Below, piece after piece: positions 7,382-7,976 of a stretch of DNA of 21,738 nucleotides. The notes beneath the pieces were generated by a model. The model did no database searches. It worked only from the letters and a program-made list of their open reading frames with translations, and was not told the origin of the DNA. Position 1 is the first letter of the stretch. Each line of letters opens with the position of its first letter. The position numbers were made by a program, and so were the translations under genes. This DNA comes from a virus (Duplodnaviria; Heunggongvirae; Uroviricota; Caudoviricetes), in the IMG/VR virus record IMGVR_UViG_2537561977_000011; one strand, given 5' to 3'.

Positions 7382-7395
7382 ACTGTCTCCACTAT

Positions 7396-7419
7396 AAAAA
7401 AACCGCCAATTTCTGGCGG
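7396..7419 (-). terminator. rho-independent terminator for minus-strand transcripts, just downstream of the moron gene
   Basis: Minus-strand RNA: stem GCCGCCA, loop GAAAT, stem TGGCGG, followed by a U7 tract; begins 9 nt after the moron stop codon (TAA 7430..7428). Confidence 0.7.
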
Positions 7420-7427
7420 CTTATATA

Positions 7428-7910
7428 TTAATCATCATTAATATCTTTCATATTCAATTTGCAATTTTCGTAGGTCACTCCCGACTCGCCATTAACATTA
7501 ACTCCAGCTCTGATATTCCCGTTTTCTTTTACATCTACAAAAAACTGGCCTCTTGGCATCTTGAACGCAAATGTAAAACCAACAGTATCTGAATCAAAAT
7601 CATCATCTTTATATATTGGGATCAAAAATGTCATCGTCGCTGGTGATGCATTGTTTGCAAAATCAAATACACCTATACTTTTGCCGAATTCATAAGAAGC
7701 TTTTCTCAATATAATCGCACCGCTGGCAGAAGGGGATGGGCACGATATCCTCAGTTGCCTGAATCCATCTGTATCCAAGTCAACGTCATTATCTGCAGAT
7801 GTTTTAACGTTACTAATAAATCGTGAAACAATCTCCTCATTTGTTAGTATTTTCGCCTGAGCACAGCAAGAGGTTAATATTGCAACCGTCATTAAAAATG
7901 GCTTTATCAC
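7428..7910 (-). CDS. moron gene: predicted secreted protein or lipoprotein of unknown function (160 aa)
   Basis: AT-rich island clearly lower in GC than the flanking tail genes; N-terminus MIKPFLMTVAILTSCCAQA has signal-peptide features (lipobox-like LTSC and an AxA site); GTG start at 7910 with GGAG 8 nt upstream (internal ATG at 7892); own intrinsic terminator downstream. Confidence 0.7.
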   Translation of the reverse strand: MIKPFLMTVAILTSCCAQAKILTNEEIVSRFISNVKTSADNDVDLDTDGFRQLRISCPSPSASGAIILRKASYEFGKSIGVFDFANNASPATMTFLIPIYKDDDFDSDTVGFTFAFKMPRGQFFVDVKENGNIRAGVNVNGESGVTYENCKLNMKDINDD

Positions 7911-7976
7911 AAAACAAACTCCATTGTTAGCATGTTACGCGATAATTTTGCCTCATCTTTCACCACAAAAAAGAAC

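Follow-up and report, generated by a model that had tools for sequence, protein, structure and literature searches.

In the definition of Juhala and Hendrix (in PMC3594210), a moron is a piece of extra DNA of deviating GC content that carries its own promoter and its own terminator and is expressed from the repressed prophage. The gp15 moron of phage HK97 adjoins the tape-measure gene and excludes phage (PMC3594210). Here, we analyse a candidate of the same kind in IMG/VR virus record IMGVR_UViG_2537561977_000011, a stretch of 21,738 nucleotides of Caudoviricetes DNA that is referred to below, at its full length, as the window. Between its tape-measure gene and a gene for a Mu gpN-like protein (hereafter gpN) lies a cassette with a single accessory gene, which we call gene X. 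A first-pass annotation, made from the letters alone, had described this gene as an AT-rich moron for a secreted or lipoprotein-like protein. We find that the gene X product is not a component of the tail, and we propose, at a probability of roughly 0.4, that the cassette is a self-contained accessory unit of the moron type whose product is a periplasmic binding protein, acting most plausibly in superinfection exclusion.

P1 Sim and T4 Spackle are both phage-encoded, Sec-exported, soluble periplasmic proteins that block a post-adsorption step. Their sequences and folds are unrelated to those of the gene X product (Spackle is helical), and the analogy is a functional one only. With HK97 gp15, gene X shares its nature as an extra, GC-deviant gene that sits in the tail operon beside the tape-measure gene and encodes a putative envelope protein dispensable for the virion; gp15, however, lies upstream of the tape-measure gene, encodes an inner-membrane protein, has an identified promoter and is proven to cause exclusion (PMC3594210). 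There is no sequence relationship between the two. Lom and Bor of lambda and Cor of phi80, N15 and HK022 are likewise envelope cargo of benefit to the lysogen, located in or next to the late or tail genes of temperate coliphages, and Cor and Bor are lipoproteins (PMC3594210). They differ from gene X in protein family and in slot, and the lipobox of gene X is confined to one subclade.

Position and composition of the cassette

The long open reading frames (ORFs) of the window all share the minus strand and make up a phage morphogenesis operon. Gene X (7428..7910, minus; 160 codons) opens with a GTG at 7910-7908. It is preceded by a 66-nt AT-rich leader (7911..7976, minus), in which a GGAG at 7922-7919, 8 nt 5′ of the GTG, forms the Shine-Dalgarno sequence, and is followed by a predicted intrinsic terminator (7396..7422, minus), so that leader, gene and terminator would together make up a unit of about 590 bp. 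The left border is the upstream tape-measure gene (7977..9926, minus; 649 aa; PF10145, 1.4e-44; phrog_28), the 3′ end of which is 95% identical to L47 of phage phiP27. The right border is the downstream gene for the gpN-like DNA-circulation or baseplate-hub protein (5972..7381, minus; PF07157, 3e-36; phrog_184), and a gpP gene is also among the downstream neighbours. The first-pass annotation had the features of the cassette right; we corrected its details of strand and start codon and, by one or two bases, its distances.

Comparison with related prophages shows that the cassette is an indel, as had been suspected. Over 72% of its length, the window is 95% identical to the Stx2e phage phiP27, whose tape-measure gene stops at 33573. 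A 15-nt spacer and nothing else separates that gene from the start of gpN at 33589, and the same 15-nt spacer occupies this site in E. coli ATCC 43886 and UTME-13; none of the three has the AT-rich leader. In the window and in FDAARGOS_944, the site holds about 590 bp instead. Among 5426 complete E. coli genomes, the filled site was found in 11, at 95-99% identity, and the empty site (tape-measure gene, 15-nt spacer and gpN) in about 39. The cassette, which related functional phages lack, is thus dispensable for the tail module.

By alignment, its borders fall at the stop codon of the tape-measure gene and a few bases before the start of gpN. In empty sites (L001, L003), the string TAACAATGG(A/G)G stands before gpN, and in filled ones (window 7911-7935) before gene X; the 3′ end of the cassette supplies gpN with a second, new GGAG in a ribosome-binding region of its own (TATAGTGGAGACAGT; 7382..7395, minus; identified by aligning filled with empty sites). 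Because TAACAATGG(A/G)G has switched from gpN to gene X, the borders look like the product of an exchange at ribosome-binding sites; no terminal repeats pointing to a transposon-type insertion were found.

The cassette is also foreign in composition. Gene X has a GC content of 0.371, and of 0.317 at third codon positions (GC3), against 0.51-0.55 and GC3 values of 0.54-0.66 for eight other genes of the operon. That it is the lone clearly low-GC gene, placed between the tape-measure and N-like genes, therefore holds as first described (0.37 versus 0.52-0.55 for comparison genes that include those for tape measure, gpN, gpP, sheath and portal), and the lowest-GC 500-nt bin of the whole window is the one at 7501-8000 (0.376). 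The next lowest bins, at 0.45-0.47, correspond to an insertion sequence (IS) element and to the end of the tail-fibre region.

The terminator consists of AAGCCGCCAG-AAA-TTGGCGGTT followed by a run of seven T residues (stem 7422..7400, T run 7402..7396). The hairpin is predicted to fold at -14 kcal/mol (z = -4.1), a value that none of 200 shuffled sequences equalled. A terminator after the gene had been noticed before, with distances that need adjustment: the core GC stem begins 7 nt after the stop codon, not 9, and the ATG of gpN (7381) lies 14 nt past the T run, not 15. An equivalent hairpin with a T run, built on another stem sequence, follows gene X in essentially every homologue examined; these hairpins lie 25-46 nt past the stop codon, with GCCGCC, CCGCG, CCCGC, CCCAC and others as stems.

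Gene X is thus extra DNA relative to relatives with a conserved gene order, differs from its surrounding genes in GC content and has a predicted terminator of its own. The moron assignment stands as far as an optional, terminator-capped cassette of foreign composition whose product has a Sec signal peptide is concerned; no promoter above background was found in the window or as a conserved feature of the family.

Distribution of the family

The gene X product matches phrog_5586 (E = 1e-88 over 160 of 161 positions), a family of unknown function for which Pfam and NCBIfam offer no model and no structure has been solved. Searches of Pfam, NCBIfam, PADLOC and PDB sequences with the gene X product came back empty, and only about 20 clusters of homologues, none named and none with a Pfam domain, were present in protein collections of 5.8 billion and 1.8 billion sequences. 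A literature search on phrog_5586, phage 720R4 and the accession numbers found nothing.

The order tape measure-X-gpN recurs in phage vB_EcoM-720R4 (50% identity in gene X), in a Yersinia enterocolitica prophage (72-74%, varying with the alignment) and in metagenome contigs (37-44%). In a scan of IMG/VR, it was present at 57 of 62 loci, with gene X down to 36% identity; of the remainder, four end at a contig edge and one (L037) has a rearranged upstream region, in which short ORFs on both strands (2000-5000) occupy the place where a recognisable tape-measure gene would precede gene X. Tail-slot homologues have GC contents of 0.34-0.42 between flanks of 0.46-0.58, and each variant examined encodes a signal peptide. 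The inserted cassette is optional, as first proposed, but not a recent one-off event: it is an old and recurrent resident of this slot.

The sequences flanking gene X bear on the length of this residence. In one clade, gene X and gpN are 50% and 52% identical to their counterparts and the tape measure 71%; in some lineages, gene X is only 36-43% identical where tape measure and gpN are 63-71%. Since the divergence of gene X partly tracks that of its flanks and exceeds it in some lineages, we envisage long residence combined with faster change or exchange. At moderate divergence, the ratio of nonsynonymous to synonymous substitution rates (dN/dS) in gene X is 0.06-0.2, so that the gene is functional and under purifying selection. 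In the Yersinia enterocolitica copy (L005), there is an apparent -1 frameshift in the signal peptide (5976-6010), where ATG AAA AAA CCT ATC TAC TT reaches a stop and the annotated ORF begins MMLISCC; this copy is either a pseudogene or an assembly error.

A sister clade at 50% identity is found in 101 of the 5426 complete E. coli genomes, which brings gene X and this clade together to about 2% of them. Gene X also occurs in many Shigella flexneri and sonnei assemblies; its carriers include strains of both species and of Shiga toxin-producing E. coli (STEC), and many others are phages from environmental or livestock metagenomes. A locus search of the GTDB species genomes with a narrow alignment recovered only the S. 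flexneri and E. coli representatives.

Two further relatives lie outside tail modules. They share 24-28% identity with the family, were found at E = 6e-9 and 2e-6 with a profile built without them, and one was confirmed by tblastn. Both are in phage-plasmid-like contigs (L007, 427-2229; L008, 815-4305), where their neighbours are HigBA-like or MazEF toxin-antitoxin pairs, a ParA-type ATPase, an IncFII RepA and a CI-like repressor with an S24 peptidase domain. Their GC content is ordinary, and the terminator is still present. Toxin-antitoxin, partition and repressor neighbourhoods of this sort are regions expressed in the carried state. With relatives beside plasmid-maintenance and immunity genes, the family is mobile cargo, and its function is independent of the tail. 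With the phage-plasmid homologue P0022 as query, a tblastn search of plasmids and phages recovered the 720R4-type gene only. Giant repeat proteins that also appeared as candidates (P0018, P0024 and P0025) are cadherin- or Ig-like adhesins or belong to no family; they match over only 35-48 residues, repeatedly, and we rejected them as compositional noise. In one metagenome contig (L009, 2387-3423), two cargo genes follow the tape-measure gene, one with a HIRAN domain and then the gene X homologue.

Predicted export and fold of the product

The N-terminus of the product is as previously read: codons 1-19 (7854..7910, minus) encode a signal peptide, MIKPFLMTVAILTSCCAQA, that is followed by K20. 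Its layout is MIK / PFLMTVAILTSCC / AQA, and A-Q-A↓K (the arrow marks cleavage) forms a signal-peptidase-I site. A signal peptide with n, h and c regions that ends in A-x-A↓K is present in 31 of 31 non-redundant homologues, with A19 and K20 conserved in at least 90%; Sec export to the periplasm is predicted for the whole family. Overlapping this site in the window protein is a lipobox-like L12-T13-S14-C15 (7877-7866, minus), which is preceded by K3 and by a hydrophobic core at P4-I11. The sequence fits the lipobox pattern [LVI][ASTVI][GAS]C (PROSITE PS51257), as does LISC in the Yersinia copy. The first-pass annotation had offered a lipobox-like LTSC or an AxA site; the former stands as a pattern but not as a trait of the family. 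L-(T/I)-S-C-C is limited to the window/Shigella subclade and the Yersinia copy, while the other clades (25 of the 31 non-redundant sequences) have no cysteine in the signal peptide and show plain A-x-A↓K at the aligned position. A lipid anchor is thus possible, on this pattern, in the subclade of the window.

The mature protein has about 141 residues, a mass of 15.6 kDa and an isoelectric point of 4.6. It was modelled with AlphaFold from the mature sequence and 15 diverse homologues; a run with nine close sequences reached a mean predicted local distance difference test score (pLDDT) of only 46 and was discarded. The retained model (pLDDT 88, predicted template modelling score 0.84) places a helix at residues 5-22 and, after it, eight up-down strands. 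The motif C57-P-x-x-S61-A-S-G64 (7719..7742, minus), at the end of strand 1 and in the β1-β2 loop, is kept in 29 of 29 tail-slot members. Cys150 (7461..7463, minus), in the last predicted strand, is the sole other cysteine conserved in the mature part, and since the two lie on strands 1 and 8 of the model, a disulfide between Cys57 and Cys150 probably closes the barrel. Further invariant residues form PxGQFF in the turn between strands 5 and 6 and NxxGxSG in that between strands 7 and 8; by topology, both turns and the β1-β2 loop would share one end of the barrel, which suggests a single conserved binding face.

Profile and structure searches with the 160-aa protein thus yielded a confidently predicted barrel, no signature of a virion family and no specific relative. 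Foldseek searches against the PDB and against viral models returned nothing under E = 0.04. The fold matches are ligand- or protein-binding barrels, namely avidins, GID4, PliC and lipocalin-like proteins; judged from the model, the class of the fold is clear, and the specific family is new to structure databases, with no close solved relative. A PDB profile match to Calx-beta of the Na/Ca exchanger (E = 0.09) was rejected, as it is not significant and does not fit the predicted barrel.

A resemblance to the MliC/PliC lysozyme inhibitors had been suggested on first reading. Members of this family are eight-stranded barrels with an SxSGAxY motif on the β4-β5 loop and a YxxxTKG motif on strand 6 (PMC5507604, PMC6033465). 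The predicted eight-stranded antiparallel barrel agrees with this description, and SASGA in the window protein is identical to the core of the E. coli MliC motif (ISASGARY). However, the window protein reads S61-A-S-G-A-I-I, so that the tyrosine of motif 1 is missing, as it is family-wide; A65 is not conserved and only SASG is kept. SASG is moreover located between predicted strands 1 and 2 and not in a β4-β5 loop, and YxxxTKG occurs in neither the window protein nor the family consensus. PF09864 gave no match at E ≤ 1 to the window protein or to any of 16 homologues, hhalign comparison with 2f09, 3f6z and 4mir gave a probability of 0.1%, and BLASTP gave E = 29. Membership in MliC/PliC (PF09864/COG3895) is hence rejected on the strength of the profiles, the absent tyrosine, the placement of the motif and the missing motif 2. 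What the gene X product does share with MliC/PliC and with Neisseria ACP is that all are small exported eight-stranded barrels, in gene X by prediction. MliC/PliC inhibitors have an SxSG-type loop motif, as the gene X product does, and soluble as well as lipoprotein forms, as it may; ACP has a disulfide between its first and last strands, like the one proposed here, and likewise lacks the MliC/PliC motifs.

Candidate functions and their significance

We favour superinfection exclusion by a protein of the lysogen's periplasm. The cassette holds a fixed cargo slot, between tape measure and gpN, in phiP27/SfV-type prophages with Mu-like tails. Its product would be exported to the periplasm, where, in the subclade of the window, Cys15 may anchor it to the outer membrane. 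The barrel, presumably clamped by the Cys57-Cys150 disulfide, could bind its target by the one conserved face formed by the CPxxSASG, PxGQFF and NxxGxSG loops and neutralise something that enters or crosses the envelope. Of a superinfecting phage, the likeliest target would be the tail tip, the tape measure or the DNA-entry step; exclusion would then follow the example of HK97 gp15, P1 Sim or T4 Spackle. In the lysogen, the terminator would halt transcription that is not antiterminated before it reaches the baseplate genes, while a Q-modified late transcript would read through. PhiP27 encodes a Q-like antiterminator, so that a terminator within the tail operon would be read through during lytic growth. 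The main argument at the level of sequence is that the terminator is kept in every variant, which suggests that some non-antiterminated transcription of gene X matters.

Several results weigh against this proposal. A tool-based scan for σ70 promoters upstream of gene X in the window returned no site, the best score of a position-weight scan of the window (6.7) was under the mean of shuffled sequences, and across 22 variants the mean z was 0.3, which is background level. In several variants, moreover, gene X starts at most 20 nt after the stop codon of the tape-measure gene. Given this tight packing and the lack of a promoter above background, gene X may be expressed from the late transcript only; its translation from that transcript is likely. 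Nor is the product similar to any described protein of phage exclusion or defence: Pfam and NCBIfam gave no match, the PHROG is without an assigned function, and PADLOC-DB gave no match at E ≤ 10. A strong promoter candidate was seen only in L047 and L050 (TTGGCT-16-TATAAT, score 12.3, matched by 1-2% of shuffled sequences), about 78 nt upstream of gene X and inside the 3′ end of the tape-measure gene.

The same observations lend some credit to a late-expressed lytic helper, which we regard as unlikely, if less so than the other alternatives. Translation of gene X would then be confined to the Q-antiterminated late transcript, and the exported protein would work in the periplasm of infected cells, where it might modulate lysis or stop progeny from re-adsorbing to debris; the hairpin would be a 3′ stabiliser of the mRNA or an attenuator and would not mark where a lysogenic transcript ends. 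The absence of a detectable upstream promoter in most variants fits this explanation, as do the close packing of several homologues behind the tape-measure stop, the co-orientation of gene X with the tail operon and their long co-divergence. Yet its distant homologues reside in plasmid-maintenance and immunity regions rather than in late operons, close relatives do without the gene, and the strong terminator that every variant keeps is difficult to account for if antiterminated transcription alone is of importance. We are more doubtful about an inhibitor, periplasmic or membrane-anchored, of lysozyme or another peptidoglycan hydrolase, in which the SASG loop plugs the cleft of host lysozyme or of a phage tail lysin. 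This minority possibility would entail convergence on the MliC/PliC type, as with Neisseria ACP: the family would be a new class of phage-borne periplasmic inhibitor whose invariant CPxxSASG loop, next to the putative disulfide, mimics the inhibitory SxSG loop of MliC, PliI and PliG. It would shield lysogens, among them Shigella and STEC, against lysozyme of the host or against the peptidoglycan-degrading tail enzymes that superinfecting phages bring. If so, its soluble variants would be the counterpart of PliC and its lipid-anchored ones that of MliC. Besides the failed profile comparisons (PF09864 in 0 of 16 members, hhalign 0.1%), the absent tyrosine and motif 2 and the wrong loop, about 20 unrelated barrels score above MliC/PliC, and, by a rough estimate, some 3% of proteins of similar size would contain SxSG by chance.

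An outer-membrane lipoprotein that alters host-pathogen interaction (serum resistance or adhesion), like lambda Bor, seems slightly less probable again. L-T-S-C15, K3 and the short hydrophobic core do fit a lipobox, Yersinia keeps LISC, and S. flexneri, S. sonnei and STEC are among the carriers; on the other hand, every other clade replaces the lipobox with A-x-A↓K, there is no likeness to the Bor, Lom or Cor families, and many carriers are phages of environmental or livestock metagenomes. The best fold matches, which extend from avidins and GID4 to fatty-acid- and bile-acid-binding proteins, the lipocalin-like Tp0751 and hemophilin, would suit a calycin-like periplasmic protein that binds a small ligand (a lipid, cofactor, metal or peptide) to metabolic or sequestering benefit, an explanation to which we attach a little less weight still. 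A virion component or tail-assembly factor is very improbable. Gene X does sit inside the tail cluster and is co-inherited with it, but it encodes a cleavable Sec signal peptide, has homologues outside tail modules and is absent from phiP27 and many close relatives, and its product matches no structural-protein family. The earlier view that it has no recognisable virion function agrees with these results.

The Shigella/E. coli prophage around the cassette is degraded (window 1137-1640, plus; 15619-16860, 14195-15420 and 18802-20559, minus). An IS1 transposase lies in the tail-fibre region, and an IS4-type DDE transposase separates the gene for the prohead protease from that for the capsid, which is present as two ORFs; the large terminase is likewise split. 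Gene X and the genes for tape measure and baseplate are intact despite this decay. A perfect tandem repeat of 9 bp (AGAAGGTAA, four copies; 7340-7375) encodes (LPS)n at the N-terminus of the gpN-like protein, and its copy number varies among otherwise near-identical prophages. An Rfam search of the window gave no RNA.

Genes carried as cargo within tail operons are known to give lysogens phenotypes, among them phage exclusion, serum resistance and adhesion. Gene X defines an uncharacterised family of putatively exported proteins whose slot is fixed across a widespread enterobacterial prophage group. If either superinfection exclusion or lysozyme inhibition proves to be its function, it would represent a new family of periplasmic defence or protection proteins.

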